DNA from: a virus
Virus record (IMG/VR): IMGVR_UViG_3300017991_000007
Coordinates: 32,001 to 96,000 of that record
Strand: one strand, 5' to 3'
DNA length: 64,000 bases
The notes under the pieces are model-generated. The model worked only from the letters and a program-made list of their open reading frames with translations. It did no database searches and was not told where the DNA came from. Below, in pieces: positions 3,732 to 64,000 of this stretch (its first letter is position 1; each line of letters opens with the position of its first letter). The position numbers and the translations under genes were made by a program.

Positions 3732-3805
3732 GCGCTTATAGCTCAATGGTAGAGCAAGGGACTCTAAATCCCCGTGCATAGGTTCAAATCCTATTAAGCG
3801 CACCA
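3732..3805 (+). tRNA. tRNA with CUA anticodon (amber suppressor)
   Basis: Cloverleaf: GCGCTTA/TAAGCGC, D arm GCTC-AATGGTA-GAGC, anticodon arm AGGGA-CTCTAAA-TCCCC (one mismatch), T arm ATAGG-TTCAAAT-CCTAT, A73, encoded CCA. Confidence 0.92.
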
Positions 3806-6624: not shown

Positions 6625-6654
6625 TCCTTTATAATTTACGCACGGGGGTAGCGA

Positions 6655-7194
6655 ATGGCAAAGAAAAAGCCGGTCAAATGGGAGCCTTTCAAAGAGGCAT
6701 ATTACCCGGATGATTTTCCGCTTGATGACGATAAGGTTTACAAGAATAATCAGTATCAGGTAGCAGCCAAGCTTTATCCCTCTCAAGGGGGTTTTCCTCA
6801 GTATGTGGGGCTTTCCATTAAGAAGCTGAATAAACACCCCGTACATGATTGGCGGGATTTGCAGCGTATAAAAAATGAGTTGTGCGGGATCAATTGTCAA
6901 GCTATTGAGATTTACCCGCCTGAGTCTGAGTTGGTGGATACTGCCAACCAATATCATCTTTGGGTATTCCCGCCGGGTATCTGCTTACCTATCGGATTTA
7001 GTGAGCGGCGTGTTTCGTGTGATCCTGAATTCCAAGAGCAATTAGAGCAAGATTGTGCTGGTATCGGGATTGATCCAAAGCAGTTGAATAAATCCAAGCA
7101 AAGAGAATTCAAAGAGCATCATAAATGCCGGACCTTGCCGGAAATCGGTAGGGTATGGCAGGATGTTGGCTATGAGGGGGTAGAGGATGATTGA
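6655..7194 (+). CDS. conserved phage hypothetical protein
   Basis: HDWRDLQRIKNEL...EIYP.ESELVD.ANQYHLW motif; ACGGGGGTAGCGA RBS. Confidence 0.75.
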   Translation: MAKKKPVKWEPFKEAYYPDDFPLDDDKVYKNNQYQVAAKLYPSQGGFPQYVGLSIKKLNKHPVHDWRDLQRIKNELCGINCQAIEIYPPESELVDTANQYHLWVFPPGICLPIGFSERRVSCDPEFQEQLEQDCAGIGIDPKQLNKSKQREFKEHHKCRTLPEIGRVWQDVGYEGVEDD

Positions 7195-8954: not shown

Positions 8955-8982
8955 TTGACAATCCAAATAAGCGGTGTATATT
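8955..8982 (+). promoter_or_regulatory. sigma70 promoter
   Basis: TTGACA-16-TATATT. Confidence 0.7.
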
Positions 8983-8989
8983 AACCAAC

Positions 8990-9483
8990 CATTACGGCGG
9001 CAAACCGTGACTCTGGATAGCGATTTGTTAGCTGTATTTGCTCAATTTTATTAGGAAAGGGGTGATTAAACGTGTCAAGATTTTGAAGTTCATTTTGATG
9101 AAAGTCTGCTTTTGGACGTAACTCACTGCGAAGTGGGGTACCCCTTGGTAGGGCAGCTTTTTGAATCTCTGGTTTTGTCTTGGCCCTTTATCCGTGATTT
9201 TGATTCACGGGGCAAGTCAGGGGAAAATCAGGCTAAAGAGTCTCTAAGCTTGTGATCTGCGGGGGAACGCTCCGGTAACTATACGGGAAAGAGCCTGAAC
9301 GAGCGAACAGGTCATTTCCTTAAACACCGTGCCGGGGTTTCAACGGAGTTGGCTGCAATCCTATCCAATGTGATCATAGGGCTGCGGTGTTTGGAGGCGG
9401 GTGACTTAGAACATGAAAGGATAGAACTTTGAATAGTTTTACGAGGTAGAGGCCGTTTCCATTGGGAGCGGCCTTTGCTTTTT
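8990..9483 (+). ncRNA. putative large structured ncRNA (~490 nt)
   Basis: Own promoter and terminator, no convincing ORF; long-range pairings (TTTGAAGTTC/GAACTTTGAA, AAGTC/GACTT, AAACACCGT/GCGGTGTTT); CTCACT-GCGA-AGTGGG GNRA hairpin. Confidence 0.65.
9449..9483 (+). terminator. intrinsic terminator
   Basis: GAGGCCGTTTCC-ATT-GGGAGCGGCCTT followed by T-rich tail. Confidence 0.75.
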
Positions 9484-9530
9484 GTGCTATGATGTAAAAA
9501 TGTTTCACATGAAACAATTGGAGCTACCCA

Positions 9531-10418
9531 ATGAGCAAAGGCGAAAACCAAACCAATATTACCATCCAAGGCAAGAGCTTCCAACACTACCTATTTTTTC
9601 CACTGTTAATCATAGCTTGCGCTGCTATCGCTATCGGAGTGTACCAATACTATGCCCACCAAAAAGACCTTGATGCGGCCTCAGTTGACGCAAAGAGCCT
9701 GAAAGACCTTGTGAAAAACCTCAAGAAAGCGAATGCGGGGTATGAGCAAGAGATAGATGCCCTTGCAAAACTGGCAACCGACCTCAGAGACAAGCTGGAA
9801 AACGCTGAGTCAGAGGTGCGGGTAGAGGTGCGGACTCGTACAATCCGAATTCCGGGGCAACCAACCGACCCCGTGCAACCGATTGCACTACCACCGTCTT
9901 GTGAGGACTGTCTGCCTCAAATCGAAATGCCCTATCACTTTGAAAATACTTATGTGACGCTGGATGACCTACTCAAATGGTCTGAGGATGACAAAACCTT
10001 TGTTTCGGATGAGGATTACCGCAAGTTCAAACTGAAACCGGAGTTTGATGCGCTGCTTTTGACCCAAGGCACTGAGAATATTGTGGAACAGGATGAGAAA
10101 ATTCTGAGGGCAAGGTGGATCATTGGTGTTGACGGGGGTATCCGTACTCTGAATGATGAGGATAAGCCCGGTGAATTGGGGGCTACTGAGGTTGGCATTA
10201 ATTCCGGGGTTGAATTCCTGAATTTTAAGAAGCTGATAAAGGCACCCTTGGGCATGGCAGCAACAGCCTCAGTCACGCCCGCCGATTGGGAGCAATCGCA
10301 CCTCTCTTTGGGGATGACCTACCGGCCTTTCAGGAATGTTGCCGTGTCTGTTGGCTATGGTCGGTCCATGCAATCCGATATGGCTCTTGTGGGGCTTGGT
10401 GTTTTTCCTATGAAGTAA
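9531..10418 (+). CDS. membrane-anchored coiled-coil protein with C-terminal beta-rich domain (spanin-like?)
   Basis: TM helix about aa 20-39, coiled coil, Pro-rich linker with CEDC, amphipathic beta strands at the C-terminus. Confidence 0.6.
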   Translation: MSKGENQTNITIQGKSFQHYLFFPLLIIACAAIAIGVYQYYAHQKDLDAASVDAKSLKDLVKNLKKANAGYEQEIDALAKLATDLRDKLENAESEVRVEVRTRTIRIPGQPTDPVQPIALPPSCEDCLPQIEMPYHFENTYVTLDDLLKWSEDDKTFVSDEDYRKFKLKPEFDALLLTQGTENIVEQDEKILRARWIIGVDGGIRTLNDEDKPGELGATEVGINSGVEFLNFKKLIKAPLGMAATASVTPADWEQSHLSLGMTYRPFRNVAVSVGYGRSMQSDMALVGLGVFPMK

Positions 10419-10444
10419 ATGAAAAGGTGTGTTATGATTTAGGT

Positions 10445-10530
10445 GGTACATTTTGGTTGCCGTTTTGCTATCTTTCCTTTCTGAAAGGCCGGTGTTGTCG
10501 CTACCCCCGTTGACACCGGCCTTTCCCTTT
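10445..10530 (+). ncRNA. putative anti-Shine-Dalgarno small RNA
   Basis: Extended -10 TG-T-TATGAT 10430-10438; stem AAAGGCCGGTGT/ACACCGGCCTTT; loop TCGCTACCCCCGT is the reverse complement of the phage RBS ACGGGGGTAGCGA. Confidence 0.55.
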
Positions 10531-10613
10531 GAAAATTGTTTGCCAGCTAAAATAGTTCCTGCTATCATTATGTAGGTTATAACCGTTAATTTCTTTGCAA
10601 AGGAGTGAGGTAA

Positions 10614-11114
10614 ATGGCTTACGATGTAGAACTGATTAGGTCGGACGGTGAGGGAAGTCTAAACTTTAACGAGCTTGAGGCGAAAATCAAAGATTTCGTT
10701 GACGCTCTTTCGGTACCGGTGAAAGTGTCGGTTGGAGAGGGTGAGGATGGTCTGTTCGCCGTGATCGAATACGGTACCGACCTTGCCGGTGCGGGTCTTG
10801 TTGGTCCGGCGGGTCCGGCGGGTCCGGCGGGTGATCCAACCGTTCTTTACCCGGTGGAATTTGTCGGGTCCAACGGTGCGGGTCCATGCACCCCGGCCTC
10901 AAAATCGGATGAGGCAATCAACGTGGGTGACAAGCTGGTTCATATCGTTGGATATGTGACGGCTGCGGGTACCTTCGTTGCTACCCCCACATTGGCTGAG
11001 GCTATTGGTTCGGCTGATTTCGATTCGCTGATTACGGCGGGTCCGGTTGTTACGCAGAATAATGTAGCGAATTGGTCCACCAATACCTACATTGCGTTGG
11101 TTGCTCGTACCTAA
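10614..11114 (+). CDS. hypothetical protein with short collagen-like repeat (possible virion decoration)
   Basis: GPAGPAGPAG; strong RBS; downstream terminator. Confidence 0.65.
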   Translation: MAYDVELIRSDGEGSLNFNELEAKIKDFVDALSVPVKVSVGEGEDGLFAVIEYGTDLAGAGLVGPAGPAGPAGDPTVLYPVEFVGSNGAGPCTPASKSDEAINVGDKLVHIVGYVTAAGTFVATPTLAEAIGSADFDSLITAGPVVTQNNVANWSTNTYIALVART

Positions 11115-11135
11115 GTAACCGAGCATTTACAGTGG

Positions 11136-11165
11136 AAAGCCCCGGCGTAAAAACCGGGGCTTTTT
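11136..11165. terminator. bidirectional terminator
   Basis: AAAGCCCCGG-CGTAAAAA-CCGGGGCTTTTT between convergent units. Confidence 0.8.
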
Positions 11166-11167
11166 AT

Positions 11168-11340
11168 TAAGAGGGGGATAGGCATTTCAGCCTACCGTTT
11201 CCGCTTACTTGTATGAACGGCAATTCTCCAAAAGGTACCCGCCGGTACATCTTGGCCTCAGCGGTGTTTTTCAATAACCCGGTCCTAAAGTCGGTTGCCG
11301 CCAACCATTACCCCCGAATCACCTCAAACTACCCCTCTTA
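11168..11340 (-). ncRNA. putative structured ncRNA with T-loop-like arm and pseudoknot
   Basis: Terminal stem UAAGAGGGG/CCCCUCUUA; 3' arm UAGGC-UGAAAU-GCCUA; hairpin GUUGG-CGGCAA-CCGAC able to pair with downstream UUGCCG. Confidence 0.55.
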
Positions 11341-11350
11341 GCAAATCAAA

Positions 11351-11475
11351 GAAATAACGGCTTGCTCCCCGTGCCTACCGCCTGAATCAGCCCCAAAAAT
11401 CCTTTGCTGAAACTTCCCTATCGGGTACCTCTAGTTAAGCGGGTAAAAACCCCGAAACGCCCCTAGTCGTATTTC
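11351..11475 (-). ncRNA. possible structured ncRNA
   Basis: Ends pair (GAAAUACG/CGUUAUUUC); non-coding; lies between two other RNA-like units. Confidence 0.35.
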
Positions 11476-11483
11476 AAAAGTAA

Positions 11484-11580
11484 GGCGGGATGAGCCGGGG
11501 ATTCAAACCCCGTCGCCATTGTAGCGGCTTTACCATTCGTGATCATATCCGTTTGCAACCGGATACTCCCACCTCATCCC
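11484..11580 (-). ncRNA. tRNA-like RNA (non-canonical)
   Basis: 8-bp GGGAUGAG/CUCAUCCC plus GCC end; T arm CGGGG-UUUGAAU-CCCCG; hairpin UAUCCG-GUUGCAAA-CGGAUA; no normal D arm. Confidence 0.55.
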
Positions 11581-11744
11581 TACTCTCTTGAGAGGTCTTT
11601 TTTCATTTCCCTCTTGAATACCCTGCGGGTCTTACGGCGCAAGGCTTTCCGTTCTTTTCCGGGTGGGGGTCCGCAGCATGAACAATTCATCCCGCCGGGT
11701 CCAACCCATTTCCAAGAGGTTTTCTTGAATTCATCTATTGTCAT
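11580..11744 (-). CDS. small basic Cys-containing protein (54 aa, not in ORF track)
   Basis: MTIDEFKKTSWKWVGPGGMNCSCCGPPPGKERKALRRKTRR...; ATGA overlap; TAG stop. Confidence 0.6.
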   Translation of the reverse strand: MTIDEFKKTSWKWVGPGGMNCSCCGPPPGKERKALRRKTRRVFKREMKKDLSRE

Positions 11745-11973
11745 TTTCGCTCATTCCTTTCCCAAAAAAGATCATCCCACATTTCAACCGCCTCAGCTTT
11801 GGTGCGTCCTAACGGTCCCTCAGAGTCACAACTTATGCAAGCTACTCTGAAACCTACTATCATCGGAGCGCAACCGGCGGGTGGGCTTTCCTCCATTTCA
11901 GCCCAAAGCATACCGGAGCCGCCTAAGCACTCAAAGCACAACTCCTTTGGTTTTGGCTCATTTCGTACCCCAT
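11741..11973 (-). pseudogene. Lar-like (restriction alleviation) Zn-finger gene with out-of-frame start
   Basis: CFEC...VACISCDSEGP.GRTKAEAVEMW resembles Lar family; the ATG with AAGGAG RBS at 11973 is in a different frame. Confidence 0.45.
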
Positions 11974-12014
11974 TTTGAGGCTCCTTTCATGCAAACTGAT
12001 TATCAACTGACTGC

Positions 12015-12112
12015 ATCATAACAACGCTCTTTTGGTGTGTCAAGTAAAAAGTGCAATTGCTTGCATTTTTTCTTAAAAAATACTTGACACGGCTATTTAG
12101 GTGTGTTAGGGT
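12015..12112. promoter_or_regulatory. divergent sigma70 promoters flanking TGCAATTGCTTGCA
   Basis: Minus TTGACA-17-TATGAT; site 12052-12065; plus TTGACA(12084)-17-TAGGGT. Confidence 0.8.
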
Positions 12113-12155
12113 TAAGATAGGTTGAAAACTTGGCAACTGAAAAGGGGTAGCAAAA

Positions 12156-12500
12156 ATGTTAAACGAACACTTTTTAGTGATTGCGGGCAACGGGGGTCAA
12201 CATGACGCTGAGGTTACTGAATTAACCTCTCAGGGTGTGGACCTTTGCCGTGTGCAACGTATTCAACACGGGCGGGGGCGGCGTACTGCGGAATTGGTAA
12301 GGACTATTTACGGATGGTCCGTCCGTCACGGTAGCGGCCTCAATAATTTCGGGATCATGCGTCATTCGTGTCCTTTTGAGGATGCCGTTCAATTCGGTAT
12401 CAATTGGGCAAACCGTGATCCTGATAATCGGGAATTTTTTGTCCGGCGGTCTGCATTCAGCAATATGACTGAGGATGACCGGCGGTTAATTGGTGCGTAA
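12156..12500 (+). CDS. hypothetical early protein
   Basis: GGGGTAGC RBS. Confidence 0.7.
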   Translation: MLNEHFLVIAGNGGQHDAEVTELTSQGVDLCRVQRIQHGRGRRTAELVRTIYGWSVRHGSGLNNFGIMRHSCPFEDAVQFGINWANRDPDNREFFVRRSAFSNMTEDDRRLIGA

Positions 12501-12517
12501 GAAACGGGGGTAGCAAA

Positions 12518-12763
12518 ATGGAAACGACACGAATTGAACGTACACGAATTGAGCCAACCGACTCAATGACACCGCAAGAGCTACTTGAGGCTGCGAATGT
12601 CATTATGAATCGGGTTGCAGCGGACCCTGAGAGGTTGCCTTTCGCTGAGGCAGTGCGTATCAACACGCTCTTGCTTGAGGCTGAAAGGACCGGACGGGAT
12701 TACGATTGGGAAGTGCTTGAGGTTGCAATCCTGCAATTCCAAGAGGCGCACGGGGATGCCTAA
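12518..12763 (+). CDS. small acidic hypothetical protein
   Basis: GGGGGTAGC RBS. Confidence 0.7.
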   Translation: METTRIERTRIEPTDSMTPQELLEAANVIMNRVAADPERLPFAEAVRINTLLLEAERTGRDYDWEVLEVAILQFQEAHGDA

Positions 12764-17898: not shown

Positions 17899-17933
17899 AA
17901 GACGTAAGGGTGTAATGCCCTTGCGTCTTTTTT
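17899..17933 (+). terminator. intrinsic terminator
   Basis: AAGACGTAAGGG-TGTAATG-CCCTTGCGTCTT plus T run. Confidence 0.75.
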
Positions 17934-17952: not shown

Positions 17953-19932
17953 ATGGATAATGTGTTTCGATTGACTGAGGGATTCCTTGATAAGTACAAA
18001 GGCCGTCAACCAAATTGGGGGTACGGCGTTGTGGGGTGGGTGACGTACAAGCGCACCTATGCCCGGTTAAAACCGGACGGCAATTTAGAGGATTGGTGGG
18101 AAACGGTAAAGCGGGTAGTAGAGGGTTGCTACAATGTTCAAAAGCTTCATTGTGAGGCACACCGCTTACCGTGGAATGGTAACAAGGGGCAGCTATCAGC
18201 CCAAAAGATGTATGACTTGATCTTTAATATGAAATTTCTACCGCCGGGTAGAGGGCTTTGGGCAATGGGTACTGAGTATGTTTCGGAGCGTGGCAGTGCG
18301 GCTTTGAATAATTGTGGATTTGTCAGTACCAAGGATATCAAGAGGGACTTTGCCCGTCCTTTCTGTTTTCTTATGGATATGAGTATGCTTGGAGTGGGGG
18401 TGGGAGCGGATACCAAAGGGGCCGGTACTTTCACCTTGACGCAACCGGATTACGATGATGAGCCTTATATCATTCCAGACTCAAGAGAGGGTTGGGTTGA
18501 TTCGCTCAAGGCTATTTTGGATGCGTTTTCCGGGCGTGGTAGGTTGCCCGCCAAATTCGATTACTCCCAAATCAGACCGCAGGGCGCAACTCTCAGGGGG
18601 TTTGGGGGTAAAGCCTCTGGACCCGGACCTTTGAAGCTACTCCATAAAGACGTGATCCGAATGCTGCATAAGCAAGTGTATGAAAAGAATGGAGAGGTAA
18701 CGTCAACTGTTATCGTAGATATTTTCAACATGGCAGGGCGTTGTGTTGTAGCGGGTGGTATTCGTAGGTCCGCTGAAATCATGCTTGGGGATTCTGAGGA
18801 TGCTGATTTTCTGGACTTGAAAAACCCTGCTAAGTGGAAAAAGGAGTTGAATTCGCATAGGTGGGCATCCAATAACTCAGTGTTCGCTGAGGTTGGCATG
18901 GACTATGAGCCTTTTGTGGATCAAATCATGGAAAACGGGGAGCCGGGTTTCGTTTGGTTGGATAATGCCCGGAATTATGGACGGATGATTGATGGATTCA
19001 ATGAGGATGCGGACCCGTTTGTAATGGGATGTAACCCGTGCGGCGAACAGTCGCTTGAATCTTATGAGCTTTGCAATCTGGTAGAGACTTTTCCGGCATT
19101 CCACGAATCTTATGAGGAATTTCAGTTTACACTGAAATATGCGTACCTATACGCAAAGACCGTATCCCTGATTCCCACGCATGATCCCAACGCAAATGCG
19201 ATTATCGGACGTAACCGGCGCATTGGCACGTCCGTATCCGGTATCACTCAGGCAATTCAGAGGTTTGGTTTTCGGAGTTTTATTCAAATGCTTGATAAGG
19301 GCTACCAATATCTGCGGCAACTGGACAATATTTATGCCCGCTGGTTATGTGTGCCAAACTCAATCAAACTAACATCCGTGAAACCATCCGGTACCATTTC
19401 CCTCTTGACGGGTGCGACCCCCGGTATCCATTTCCCCGAATCTGAATACTACATAAGAAACATCCGGTTTGATCCCGGCTCCCCGCTTTTGGAGCGGCTT
19501 GAGGCTGCGGGCTACCCGGTAGAACCATCCATTCAGAAAGATAATACATTAGTAGTGAGCTTTCCCGTCCGGCAAGAGCTTTTCAGCAAATCTAAGTATG
19601 ACGTGACGGTTTGGGAACAATTTGAGCTTGCCAGCCAGATACAGAAGCATTGGAGCGATAATCAGGTATCGGTCACTATCACGGTGCAAGAGGGAGAGGC
19701 GCAAGATGTTCCACGCTGCCTTTCGATGTACGAGAGTAGGCTGAAATCGGTATCAATGCTGCCTTTAGGGGAGCATGGTTATAAGCAAGCCCCGTATATT
19801 CCAATTACCAAGGCTGAGTATGATAAGATGATGAGAAAGTTAAAACCTTTGGACTTCAATGTGTCCGAGAAAGAGTGCCATGACCAAGAAGATAAATTCT
19901 GCGATTCAGAAAGCTGCGAAATCAAAACCTAA
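17953..19932 (+). CDS. nrdJ: class II adenosylcobalamin-dependent ribonucleoside-triphosphate reductase (monomeric type)
   Basis: PPGRGLW, ALNNC, RRSAE, NPCGEQ.LE..ELCNL.E, VKPSGT, C-terminal CDSESC. Confidence 0.93.
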   Translation: MDNVFRLTEGFLDKYKGRQPNWGYGVVGWVTYKRTYARLKPDGNLEDWWETVKRVVEGCYNVQKLHCEAHRLPWNGNKGQLSAQKMYDLIFNMKFLPPGRGLWAMGTEYVSERGSAALNNCGFVSTKDIKRDFARPFCFLMDMSMLGVGVGADTKGAGTFTLTQPDYDDEPYIIPDSREGWVDSLKAILDAFSGRGRLPAKFDYSQIRPQGATLRGFGGKASGPGPLKLLHKDVIRMLHKQVYEKNGEVTSTVIVDIFNMAGRCVVAGGIRRSAEIMLGDSEDADFLDLKNPAKWKKELNSHRWASNNSVFAEVGMDYEPFVDQIMENGEPGFVWLDNARNYGRMIDGFNEDADPFVMGCNPCGEQSLESYELCNLVETFPAFHESYEEFQFTLKYAYLYAKTVSLIPTHDPNANAIIGRNRRIGTSVSGITQAIQRFGFRSFIQMLDKGYQYLRQLDNIYARWLCVPNSIKLTSVKPSGTISLLTGATPGIHFPESEYYIRNIRFDPGSPLLERLEAAGYPVEPSIQKDNTLVVSFPVRQELFSKSKYDVTVWEQFELASQIQKHWSDNQVSVTITVQEGEAQDVPRCLSMYESRLKSVSMLPLGEHGYKQAPYIPITKAEYDKMMRKLKPLDFNVSEKECHDQEDKFCDSESCEIKT

Positions 19933-58390: not shown

Positions 58391-58444
58391 TTTGGGCGTG
58401 GAACGGAATTGAAAACTTAAACGGCAAACCAAAGGGGTAGCGTT

Positions 58445-59779
58445 ATGCCAGAAAAATCATGGGTTAAAGGACGTGGTACTGAGTCCGTTGAAAAGTCGGT
58501 ACCTAAGTCAGTTCGTAGGCTTGTCACGGCTGAGGAAAAACGTGCGGCTGCGGCAAAGGTGGGTACGGGAATGCCGGGGGTTGCCCCGTCCGTATCGGTA
58601 GAACCGGAAAGTCTGCTTGCTGATAAGCTGGTAAAGTTCGTCGCTGAATCTATCAAAGATTCAGACGGTGATTTCATCCTATCCATTAAGGATATCACTT
58701 CAAAAACCGGGTTATCTTCAACGTATGCCCGTTTCTCTCTCAAAGACTCCAAGATAATCGAAAGAATCAATGAAAAGGTACCGGCTGAAAGCCATGTTGA
58801 AATGAACTTTGACGGTAATGAGCTTGCCGTACTTTTTGATGATGTAGTGGAAACTGAGGCTGAGGAAGTTGTTGAAATTACTGAGGAAACTGAGGAAACT
58901 GAGGATAAGGTGAAAAAGGTTGTTGCGACAAAAACCAAACCGAAAGATTATTTCTATATTGATCCGACTCGCAAGAAAAAGCTTACGGCTGCTATCAATG
59001 CTTGCCTCAATGTGTGGGCTGCGGGTCCGACCGGTACCGGAAAATCTGAAACTTACGAAAGACTCTGCGAAATTCTCAAGAGAGAATCAATCAAGATGTC
59101 ATTCAATGGAGAATCAAGTGCGGATGACCTTTTGGGGCATTACACTTTGCAGGGTACGGAAACGGTTTGGGTTGATGGTGCGCTACCCCGCGCAATGAAA
59201 GCGGGAGCGGTGTTGATTTGTGAGGAAATTGATGCCGCTCCCGCTGAGTGCAATCTTGCATTGCAGCGGGTTTTAGAGAATAGAAGGGATGGAAAGCCAA
59301 GGTCTTTCTACAATCCCCGTAACGGTGAAACCGTGGAAGCAAAACCGGAATTCGTGGTACTGGCAACTGCCAATACAACGGGTGGGGGTGACTACACCGG
59401 ACTCTATGCGGGTGTGCAAGTTCAAAATGCTGCGTTTCGGGATAGGTTCGTTTTTGAATACTTTGATTACCTTACCCCGGCAATGGAAAAGAAAGTCTTG
59501 ACAATGCGTTTCCCAAATATGCCCGCTGATATGGCTGATAAAGCGGTCAAGTTTGCCGGATACGCTCGGAATGCGGTTAATGACGGTACCATTTTCACGC
59601 CGGTATCAACTCGTACCTTGCTGGCATTCGCACAACTCTACTGCGTATTCAGAGAGGCGAAAATGGGTACCAAAAAGGCTCTAAGTGAGGCTTTGGATTC
59701 GTCAATATTTTACAAGTCCGCAAGTCCCTCAGACGCTACTGCCTTAAAGGAAATGGCACAAAGGGTCTTTGGTGACTAA
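58445..59779 (+). CDS. CobS/MoxR-like AAA+ ATPase
   Basis: GPTGTGKS, LICEEID, LQRVLE, ATANT.G, NAAFRDRF, STRTL. Confidence 0.88.
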   Translation: MPEKSWVKGRGTESVEKSVPKSVRRLVTAEEKRAAAAKVGTGMPGVAPSVSVEPESLLADKLVKFVAESIKDSDGDFILSIKDITSKTGLSSTYARFSLKDSKIIERINEKVPAESHVEMNFDGNELAVLFDDVVETEAEEVVEITEETEETEDKVKKVVATKTKPKDYFYIDPTRKKKLTAAINACLNVWAAGPTGTGKSETYERLCEILKRESIKMSFNGESSADDLLGHYTLQGTETVWVDGALPRAMKAGAVLICEEIDAAPAECNLALQRVLENRRDGKPRSFYNPRNGETVEAKPEFVVLATANTTGGGDYTGLYAGVQVQNAAFRDRFVFEYFDYLTPAMEKKVLTMRFPNMPADMADKAVKFAGYARNAVNDGTIFTPVSTRTLLAFAQLYCVFREAKMGTKKALSEALDSSIFYKSASPSDATALKEMAQRVFGD

Positions 59780-59786
59780 AAAAGAC

Positions 59787-59815
59787 TTGACAAGCACAAA
59801 AAGCCGTGTTAGGGT
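59787..59815 (+). promoter_or_regulatory. sigma70 promoter
   Basis: TTGACA-17-TAGGGT. Confidence 0.6.
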
Positions 59816-59853
59816 CAAACCTAGCACGGTAACTTTTTTAACGGGGTAGCAAA

Positions 59854-61992
59854 ATGGTAAACAACCGACTCAATCAAACACTCGAAAGCGCAAGTGAGAA
59901 ACTTGCCCGTATGGTTACGGCAAGCGGTATCAACGTGGGCTTTTCTGACAAGGTGAAAATCCCAAGTGCGGACGTTGTAGGCAATCGAATTATGATGCCC
60001 GCCTTGCCGGAAAACATGACTCCCAAAGAGATTGCAAAATTGCGGGGTCTTATGGATCACGAAATGGCGCATTGCCTCTTTACCAAGGATAAGACCGGCA
60101 AGCCAATAGAACGTCCGGGCAACGGTATGGACGGTATCATTGCCAATGCTCTTGAGGATGGTCGTATCAACCGGAAAATGGGTGATAAGTTTTTCGGCTC
60201 CAAAGAAAATCTGAATGAGCTTTATCGGATTTATAAGGCTGAGATTGATACTCAGGGGGATGAAATACCGCCGGGTGTTGATCCCGAACAACACAAGGAT
60301 ATGCAGGAAAGATTTACTGCGTTGCTAAGAGCGTCAATGGAGCATGTTATGAAAGCCCCAAAGGATACTCTTAGCGAACCAAACCAATACACTGAGGCTC
60401 TAAGCCCGGAATTGGTCAATGAGTTAAGAAAAATCGAAACCCTTGAGGATGTTTTTGAGGCGGTCCCAAAGGTCAAGAAATGGATTCTGAAAGACTATAA
60501 GGAACCACCTAAGCAGGATCAAGAGGGTGACGGTGACGGGGATAGCTCGGATGGTCAAGAGGGTGAAAGTAGCCAAAGTCAATCCGGGTCCGGTCAAGGC
60601 AGTTCTCAGGGTAAGTCTAAAATGAGTAGCTTGGATGATTCGGGTGATTCTGACTCAAGCGATTCGGATAACCAAAGTGATTCAGGCGATTCAGGGGATT
60701 CTGATAAGCCTGAAAACTCGGACGGTGACTCTGAGGGGGGAAAAGGCGATTCTGAGGGTGACGATTCAGACGAAAACGACTCTGAGGATTCGCAGGGCGG
60801 CTCTGAGGGGGATTCTGAGGATTCAGACGATGATTCAGACTCGGAAAGCGGTCAAGGCGATTCTGAGGGCAATGAGGGGGATTCTGAGGAAACCGGTCAA
60901 GGCGATTCGGACAAGGAAAAAGCCAATGCTGGTAATGATCCTAAAATGGAAAAGGGTCATGGTACCCCGGCTGAGACTGAGGGCGGGATGGATTCTGATT
61001 TCATAGACTCCTTTGCTGATTTCTGCAACAAAGTAGAGGAATCAATCAAGAAAAAACAAGAGGTCAAATTCAGTCAAAAGGATATGAAAGCAAAATATCT
61101 TGTGGATACGTCCGGGGATACTGAAATTCATATCAAGGATATGCCCACTCTTTTCAAGCGCACCTACAATGATCCTTACGTTAAAGAACTTTTGGAGCAT
61201 GGTAAGAGTCTTTTCCAAGGGCTGAATGATAAGGTTGCCGCAATGCGTGGTAGGCTTATTCTTGACTTGCAATCCAAGGGTAGAATATGGACCAAAGACC
61301 TTGATACGGGTCGATTGGATACTCGCACCTTGCACCGGCCTTTCATTGGTGACAAGAGGATTTTCAAAAACAAGCTTAAGAAAGATAAGGTCAATACTGC
61401 GGTAACTCTGCTTGTCGATTGTAGCGGCTCTATGAGCGGTAGGAAATTTGATACTGCCATTCAGCTTGCGGCAATTATGTGTGACGCTCTTGAAATGGCA
61501 AACGTGCCTTGTGAGGTCTTGGGATTCACTACCGGCTCAATCTCTGGCACTCCCAATTTTGGGGTAAGGAGAGAGGGCGTTGTGCATATCATTTTCAAGA
61601 CCTTTGATGAAATGGCAAGTGCCTTTCGTGACAAGTGGTACGGGGCTGCGGGTGTACTGAGAAACAATGTTGATGGAGAGGCGGTTTTGTGGGCTGCAAA
61701 GAGGCTCATTAAGCGTACTGAGGAAAGGAAAGTCTTATTCGTACTTTCGGATGGTAGACCCGCCGGATACGTTGATGCGGATATGGGAAAGCACCTCAAA
61801 GACTCAGTTAAGAAAGTAGAGAAAACTGGTATTGAGGTTTTGGGGGTTGGTATTATGACGAATGCTCCCAAGAGGTACTACACTAACAACGTGGTTTACA
61901 ATGGCCTCAGTGAGCTTATGGCAGGATTCTACAAGCGCATTTCGGATATGCTGCGTTTTGAAATTCATCAAAACAAAGCTAAGGCCGTTTAG
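59854..61992 (+). CDS. CobT-like VWA protein with N-terminal HExxH domain and acidic linker
   Basis: HEMAH...NALEDGRI; D/S/G/E low-complexity linker; MIDAS DCSGSM; LSDG.P. Confidence 0.88.
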   Translation: MVNNRLNQTLESASEKLARMVTASGINVGFSDKVKIPSADVVGNRIMMPALPENMTPKEIAKLRGLMDHEMAHCLFTKDKTGKPIERPGNGMDGIIANALEDGRINRKMGDKFFGSKENLNELYRIYKAEIDTQGDEIPPGVDPEQHKDMQERFTALLRASMEHVMKAPKDTLSEPNQYTEALSPELVNELRKIETLEDVFEAVPKVKKWILKDYKEPPKQDQEGDGDGDSSDGQEGESSQSQSGSGQGSSQGKSKMSSLDDSGDSDSSDSDNQSDSGDSGDSDKPENSDGDSEGGKGDSEGDDSDENDSEDSQGGSEGDSEDSDDDSDSESGQGDSEGNEGDSEETGQGDSDKEKANAGNDPKMEKGHGTPAETEGGMDSDFIDSFADFCNKVEESIKKKQEVKFSQKDMKAKYLVDTSGDTEIHIKDMPTLFKRTYNDPYVKELLEHGKSLFQGLNDKVAAMRGRLILDLQSKGRIWTKDLDTGRLDTRTLHRPFIGDKRIFKNKLKKDKVNTAVTLLVDCSGSMSGRKFDTAIQLAAIMCDALEMANVPCEVLGFTTGSISGTPNFGVRREGVVHIIFKTFDEMASAFRDKWYGAAGVLRNNVDGEAVLWAAKRLIKRTEERKVLFVLSDGRPAGYVDADMGKHLKDSVKKVEKTGIEVLGVGIMTNAPKRYYTNNVVYNGLSELMAGFYKRISDMLRFEIHQNKAKAV

Positions 61993-63745: not shown

Positions 63746-63807
63746 TTGACACGCCTAAAACAGCGTGTTATATTTATGAGCGATTTAGACGGGTGCAAGT
63801 GATTGCA
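63746..63807 (+). promoter_or_regulatory. sigma70 promoter with downstream TGCAAGTGATTGCA
   Basis: TTGACA-17-TATATT; site 63794-63807 abuts the RBS. Confidence 0.75.
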
Positions 63808-63820
63808 CGGGGGTAGCTAG

Positions 63821-64000
63821 ATGAGTTCTATTGACGTTGACATACTTTCACGCCTTTTGAGGCATCCCACTGAGATAACCGAACTACTGTACCACGGGAT
63901 AACTGAAAAACACCTAAGAGGCAAGATTTTCTCAGACGCTTTCAATTTCATTATGGATCATCGGTCCAAGCACAAAAAGATTCCTGACATTTCGACGGTA
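63821..64000 (+). CDS. probable replicative helicase N-terminus (truncated by window)
   Basis: GGGGGTAGC RBS; MSSIDVDILSRLL...AFNFIMDH...IPD; follows initiator and loader. Confidence 0.5.
   Translation, partial: MSSIDVDILSRLLRHPTEITELLYHGITEKHLRGKIFSDAFNFIMDHRSKHKKIPDISTV

Follow-up and report, generated by a model that had tools for sequence, protein, structure and literature searches.

A phage hairpin with a loop complementary to a tag at early-gene ribosome sites: a candidate trans-acting RNA

Between two genes of a phage (9531–10418 and 10614–11114) lies a hairpin, H1, whose loop is complementary to a motif that recurs at the phage's own ribosome sites. The question raised by this locus is whether the hairpin belongs to an RNA that acts in trans on the genes carrying the motif, or whether it is an ordinary hairpin between two transcription units. 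The window that was analysed comprises 64,000 nucleotides, corresponding to bases 32001–96000 of an IMG/VR virus record that is 106,648 bp long and carries direct terminal repeats, and coordinates refer to the plus strand of the window unless stated otherwise. The gene set of the phage is myovirus-like, with portal, sheath and tape measure, and also includes a class II RNR, a dCTP deaminase and a CobS/CobT pair; nearly all genes are carried on the plus strand. A near-identical DNA record was not found among GenBank phages, and rRNA was not found in the phage record. We consider H1 to be a plausible trans-acting anti-ribosome-site RNA, and assign this reading a probability of roughly 0.4.

The motif, GGGGTAG, is present 33 times in the window as compared to an expected 7.2 ± 2.8 copies, a number that none of 100 shuffles reached. 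Roughly 19 copies are positioned closely before start codons, with a spacing given as 4–10 nt overall and as 3–6 nt site by site; 12 of these copies are on the plus strand of the window (before the starts at 809, 3290, 6655, 7187, 12156, 12518, 14480, which is a TTG, 14717, 31722, 58445, 59854 and 63821) and 7 outside it. The existence and placement of the tag, both computed directly, bear out an earlier note on this DNA that had described a private extended ribosome site common to many early and middle genes. A survey of ribosome sites further agreed with its remark that most structural genes use ordinary AGGAG or GGAG sites. In 14 of the genome's GGGGTAG copies the motif extends to GGGGTAGC, as is observed at 12144–12151 before the ATG at 12156, at 58434–58441 before the ATG at 58445 (a CobS-like AAA ATPase) and at 59843–59850 before the ATG at 59854 (a CobT-like VWA protein). 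The latter two genes span 58445–61992, and each has a consensus promoter of its own in addition to its GGGGTAGC tag.

Judged from the conserved 16S 3' end, the universal ACCUCC of the 16S tail can pair with GGGGGU by way of one G-U pair and cannot pair with AGC. The 16S tail thus accounts for the tag in part only, that is for GGGGGU and not for AGC. The dinucleotide AG comes next in 17 of the 36 GGGGT occurrences at ribosome sites, versus 16 of 175 occurrences elsewhere. On account of this difference and of the missing 16S pairing, the AG extension is regarded as a real feature of the ribosome sites, and the idea that the 16S 3' end alone explains the tag, which the earlier note had itself raised against its proposal, does not hold. 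Recoding of TAG was also considered as a cause of the GGGGTAG excess and was rejected, since the ORFs are intact in the standard code and reading TAG as Q gives no sensible lengthening. The standard code reads the genome well and TAG is its rarest stop. The sole tRNA of the genome, at 3732–3805, has the anticodon CUA and would be an amber suppressor; it was called as tRNA-Pyl by ARAGORN, scored 72.6 bits with the Rfam tRNA model and has GGGGTAG directly 5' of it.

The early promoters of the phage belong to a family described by TTGACA-N14-TGTTATATT-like, with an extended -10 box and close to the sigma-70 consensus. There are 18 copies on the plus strand, including those at 757, 2154, 6596, 12084, 17183, 58362, 59787 and 63746 in the window, and several on the minus strand. 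The tag follows the -10 box at a distance of 13–44 nt in 10 of the 18 consensus early promoters, and consequently marks the first gene in over half of the early units. Such a distance is a frequent operator position and, taken together with an AGC extension that 16S pairing does not explain, is consistent with GGGGGTAGC being mainly the site of a phage protein, either a RegA-like RNA repressor or a DNA-binding regulator acting near promoters, the inverted copy in H1 then being an extra DNA site or irrelevant. This is unlikely, as the spacing between tag and start codon is tight (4–10 nt) while that between promoter and tag is variable, roughly half of the tagged genes lie within operons, the complement of the tag would not be bound by an RNA-binding protein, and no candidate regulator was identified.

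H1 spans positions 10483–10525. Its arms, 10483–10495 and 10513–10525, are 100% complementary and form a perfect, G+C-rich stem of 13 bp with 8 G-C pairs, leaving 17 nt in between. In the predicted minimum-energy fold the 13 bp are extended by one U-G pair; above it, a 2x2 internal loop and then two C-G pairs lead up to an apical loop of 7 nt, CUACCCC (10501–10507), which is contained in the 13-nt anti-tag TCGCTACCCCCGT (10498–10510). Three contexts were folded, with H1 placed in the candidate RNA (90 nt), in the 3'-terminal part of the upstream mRNA or in read-through, and the computed probability of CUACCCC being unpaired was 0.94–1.0. The stem is therefore as the earlier note had it, a hairpin of 12–14 bp, but the 13-nt loop it described becomes 17 nt between the arms, of which 7 are apical. 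H1 is the strongest perfect hairpin of the 106.6-kb genome and occurs only once, in one orphan genome. Out of 37 intergenic hairpins it is the only one with an anti-tag loop. As the loops of the other intergenic hairpins with stems of at least 13 bp are 4–8 nt, the large loop of H1 resembles an addition to a plain hairpin.

Complementarity between the loop and the tags was evaluated against all 155 leaders of the phage. The anti-tag TCGCTACCCCCGT is the exact reverse complement of positions 6642–6654, immediately before the ATG at 6655, and has one mismatch to the sites before 12518 and 63821 and two to the site before 809, as had been proposed for the first three. The best predicted target is ACGGGGGTAGCGA (6642–6654), which lies 21 nt past an early promoter -10 box and directly before a gene for a DUF7694 protein, with a duplex of -27.9 kcal/mol. 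Predicted target tags are also found at 12504–12516 (before the ATG at 12518; -25.7 kcal/mol), at 63807–63819 (before the ATG at 63821; -24.2 kcal/mol) and at 795–807 (before the ATG at 809 and 13 nt past an early promoter -10 box). For the 17-nt loop, the top five duplexes, at -27.9, -25.7, -25.7, -24.2 and -22.4 kcal/mol, all fall on tags. Their sum, -125.9, compares to -90.6 ± 7.0 for composition-matched shuffles, 0 of 100 of which were as good; the comparison with shuffled controls that the earlier note had called for thus came out in favor of the loop.

The same comparison was not passed by the sequence 5' of H1. A weak stem-loop of 8 bp, including G-U pairs, is predicted for this part of the candidate RNA at 10441–10474 and contains TTTTGCTATC and TTGCCGTTT, which had been put forward as additional seeds. 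Both are present in the sequence, but the complementarity of the 37-nt 5' arm to leaders is not above chance, as 27 of 100 and 37 of 100 of its own shuffles were as good. The 5' arm adds nothing to the case for a trans-acting RNA. Antisense matches of 13 nt to some leader are moreover not rare in themselves, with roughly 4 expected per strand genome-wide and roughly 9 seen on the plus strand, and GCTACCCC has five further plus-strand copies, inside genes. Because antisense 13-mers and GCTACCCC recur elsewhere, the statistical case rests on the match lying in the loop of H1 and on its hitting the shared tag. By a rough, post hoc estimate the chance of a match within the 17 exposed bases of H1 that hits the shared tag is 1e-4 to 1e-3. 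No GGGGTAG is present on the plus strand between 7177 and 12144, so that the transcription unit of the loop offers it no partner, and this favors action in trans.

An RNA containing the loop could arise in two ways. Upstream of H1 lies an orphan gene of 295 aa (9531–10418), with a weak Rz-like match only (E 4.9e-4), which is preceded at 9485–9493 by an extended -10-like box, TGCTATGAT, with no good -35. The leader of this gene (9516–9533) reads GGAGCTACCCAATG and thus contains GCTACCC in the same sense as the H1 loop, beside the gene's own Shine-Dalgarno sequence; a further GCTACCCCC is located within the next gene, at 10979–10987. Closer to the hairpin, an extended -10 box, TGTTATGAT, is present at 10430–10438, as the earlier note had reported, and fits the early promoter family (TGTTATATT-like) in its -10 part and in the spacer next to it. 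The corresponding -35 position reads ATGAAG, a 3/6 match that shares bases with the upstream gene's stop codon, and this box was not listed in the consensus promoter scan. Transcription of the 9531 unit would suffice to place the loop in RNA, as would that of a short RNA starting at 10430. On the 3' side the stem is directly followed by a weak U tail, CCTTTGAAAA (10526–10535), whose T run is poorer than those at the hairpins 9443–9481, 11131–11168 and 17899–17929; H1 with CCTTTGAAAA was not listed as terminator-like in the terminator scan. With so weak a U tail, the point at which the candidate RNA would end is uncertain. The downstream limit of the element is set by the promoter of the next gene (10614–11114), TTGCCA-17-TATCAT with TG, at 10540–10568.

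The position of H1 leads to the main competing explanation. The hairpin starts 65 nt past the TAA of the upstream gene (10416–10418) and its end is separated by 15 nt from the downstream promoter's -35, and it may be an ordinary hairpin of the terminator-like, processing or stabilising kind, placed between the units 9531–10418 and 10614–11114. The loop match would then be non-functional and could be due to chance or to an inverted leader fragment left between the arms. The next gene is likewise closed by a hairpin (11136–11163), a hairpin with very similar arms and a short unrelated loop occurs elsewhere in the genome, the same 3' arm is found in terminators of unrelated phages, and anti-tag 8-mers are encountered inside genes as well. 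On the other hand, the U tail of H1 is weaker than those at the phage's other terminators, the stretch between its arms is 17 nt as opposed to loops of 4–8 nt elsewhere, and the chance of a tag complement landing in this one loop is small. A terminator hairpin could also act in trans. We regard an ordinary hairpin with a meaningless loop as a real possibility, albeit a somewhat doubtful one. Should H1 merely be a terminator, a private tag on promoter-proximal early genes would still call for an explanation.

Two further readings of the immediate surroundings were evaluated. A hydrophobic peptide of 40 codons could be encoded at 10453–10575, to which the hairpin would be incidental; an open frame is indeed present, with a start 6 nt after a Shine-Dalgarno-like AGGTGG (10441–10446). 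That start is a TTG however, the frame crosses the 14-bp hairpin and the promoter of the next gene, and an open frame of 40 codons occurs by chance in roughly 15% of frames, which makes a peptide very improbable. Reading the locus from the minus strand, in which case the loop would carry the tag itself as a protein sponge, was rejected, as the sole nearby leftward promoter (12043–12015) is cut off by the hairpin 11136–11163 and a convergent gene.

Two neighboring stretches are without a convincing ORF. The first, at 8955–9483, comprises roughly 490 nt with a fold z-score of -2.9 and no Rfam match, flanked by a consensus promoter (TTGACA-16-TATATT) on one side and by a terminator of 18 bp on the other, and is possibly a large non-coding RNA. 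At 11170–12043, on the minus strand, the leftward consensus promoter at 12043–12015 is directed into a stretch with reversed skew and a plus strand rich in C. This stretch contains a T-arm-like GGGGATTCAAACCCC at approximately 11498–11512, a weak match to the DUF805b RNA at 11577–11615 (E 0.024) and tag-like GGGGTAG/GGGGGTA in the minus sense.

The hairpin with similar arms is located at genome positions 19770–19810. It is the second of two hairpins that follow a consensus early promoter in the 5' leader of gene 19828 (genome 19694–19810, window -12306 to -12190) and is found 47 nt after that promoter. Its arms align to those of H1 with a score of 24, as compared to 6.0 ± 3.1 for shuffles, 0 of 1000 of which were as good, and its loop is short and unrelated to that of H1. 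Common descent of the two hairpins, judged from this alignment, is possible but unsure, because terminators of unrelated phages have the same 3' arm. If the two are related, the anti-tag stretch of H1 would be an insertion into a plain hairpin, favoring function. A second anti-leader RNA at genome 19730–19769 was considered and rejected, as its complementarity to leaders is not above that of shuffles (11 of 100 and 23 of 100 as good). Paralogy of the whole promoter-leader-hairpin unit was rejected as well, given that the likeness is confined to the hairpins.

The pair could also represent a cis-acting promoter-proximal element, such as an attenuator or a put-like antitermination site, in which case the loop of H1 would be no trans seed. 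Both hairpins are found 45–47 nt past a TGTTAT-type -10 box, after a weaker first hairpin, and both have weak U tails. Yet the two share no similarity in leader or promoter region, H1 is followed by another promoter and not directly by a gene, and no Rfam family was matched, so that a cis-acting element appears quite unlikely.

Relatives of the locus were searched for by protein and by DNA pattern, and none holding the H1 region was found in IMG/VR, in metagenomes or in a collection of 5.8 billion proteins. The 295-aa protein of gene 9531–10418 had no relative in IMG/VR and matched only itself among the 5.8 billion proteins. In IMG/VR the portal protein matched a fragment of 5.7 kb (59% identity) and one other sequence at 27%, and the same fragment was the sole match in metagenomes; it retains the RNR-portal order of the phage, and its few ribosome sites are without the tag. 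In the RNR search the best of the 80 loci listed had 64% identity, and none of these had GGGGTAG as a ribosome-site tag. A 15-nt word from the loop gave 27 matches in IMG/VR, 0 of them in a hairpin. The search with the 3' arm of H1 gave 91 matching stretches, and among the 80 of these that were listed, 2 were terminators in phages without tblastx similarity. No Rfam family reached its gathering score on the H1 element and nothing was matched on the plus strand; at E<=5 the only match to H1 was STnc390, on the opposite strand, at 18 bits against a cut-off of 50.

Taken as a trans-acting RNA, H1 would be a plus-strand stem-loop with one of two origins: it could close the early mRNA of gene 9531–10418 at its 3' end, or belong to an RNA of roughly 90 nt that starts at the extended -10 box at 10430, the RNA ending at the hairpin in both cases. 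The long G+C-rich stem would display the 7-nt CUACCCC within the 13-nt complementary stretch, and the loop would pair with the tag GGGG(G)UAG(C), in a kissing interaction or a more extended duplex. Its targets would be the roughly 19 non-structural genes that carry it, including the first gene behind 10 of the 18 consensus early promoters. Such a duplex would hide the Shine-Dalgarno sequence and block 30S binding, as a result of which the tagged class would be translated less. The production and ending of the RNA, its pairing in vivo, and the direction and timing of its effect are steps that we infer. What weighs against a trans-acting RNA, besides the 3/6 match at the -35, the weak U tail, the single occurrence of H1 and the recurrence of antisense matches elsewhere, is that a single RNA would have to titrate roughly 19 mRNA species.

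With respect to timing, the earlier note had envisaged an early-to-late switch. The analysis lends this no support. Candidate and target promoters are alike of the host sigma-70 type, and on that account a switch is no more likely than a damper or a delayed feedback. In its widest form the proposal states that a lytic-type phage tags the first genes of its early units by a private Shine-Dalgarno extension and encodes one hairpin RNA that reads the tag, amounting to a class-wide brake on early protein synthesis; we hold this wider statement tentatively, and as rather less than an even chance. To our knowledge, the timing of early and late expression in phages is explained almost entirely via proteins, namely sigma factors, antiterminators, RegA/RegB-type factors and modification of RNA polymerase. 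If true, the proposal would represent class-wide post-transcriptional control without a protein, via a sequence tag common to early ribosome sites, and tag and loop would in that case make up a simple and portable pair for synthetic translation control.

Known systems offer several points of comparison. As in intrinsic terminators, the stem of H1 is G+C-rich and is found shortly past a stop codon, at the end of a unit and before the next promoter. It differs from them in the 17 nt between its arms and in the poor U run of CCTTTGAAAA, the other long hairpins of the phage having loops of 4–8 nt and clear T runs. With anti-Shine-Dalgarno sRNAs H1 shares an unpaired C-rich loop and complementarity beyond chance to multiple Shine-Dalgarno regions, but homology to a described family model was not observed. 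In S. aureus, RsaE and RNAIII bind Shine-Dalgarno sequences through unpaired, C-rich motifs in their loops (PMC2790875), and the mycobacterial 6C sRNA binds through C-rich loops (PMC6486639). Like H1, these RNAs have a C-rich loop motif on a stable stem; they pair with the Shine-Dalgarno sequences of several mRNAs and block initiation without a long single-stranded seed. The loop of H1, in contrast, is not a generic UCCC but the complement of a longer private tag, GGGGGUAGC, of one phage gene class. H1 is also one hairpin and not several, is encoded by a lytic-type phage, and has no similarity to these RNAs in sequence or by covariance model.

The cuckoo RNAs, with CCUCCUCCC in their loops (PMC4615179), provide a second comparison. 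Cuckoo/CcsR (alpha-r14) sRNAs of Alphaproteobacteria resemble H1 in that a hairpin carries an anti-Shine-Dalgarno loop, the stems of the cuckoo RNAs being variable and the loop motif CCUCCUCCC fixed. They are chromosomal and consist of 2–4 tandem hairpins with identical loops, whereas H1 is single and has a different loop word, fitted to a phage-specific tag. A phage-encoded counterpart for comparison is the c4 RNA of P1/P7, which pairs around a ribosome site (reviewed in PMC12197685). This small RNA pairs by its loops with phage mRNA and blocks translation. It acts on one operon only, ant, which is made from the same transcript, and its role is in the immunity of a temperate phage; the roughly 19 tagged targets of H1 are dispersed, with none on its own transcript given the tag-free stretch between 7177 and 12144, and homology to c4 is absent. 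By its sequence, H1 is thus not a member of the RsaE, RNAIII, 6C, cuckoo or c4 families. By analogy, it would work like the C-rich loops of RsaE/RNAIII, 6C and the cuckoo RNAs, or like the c4 RNA.
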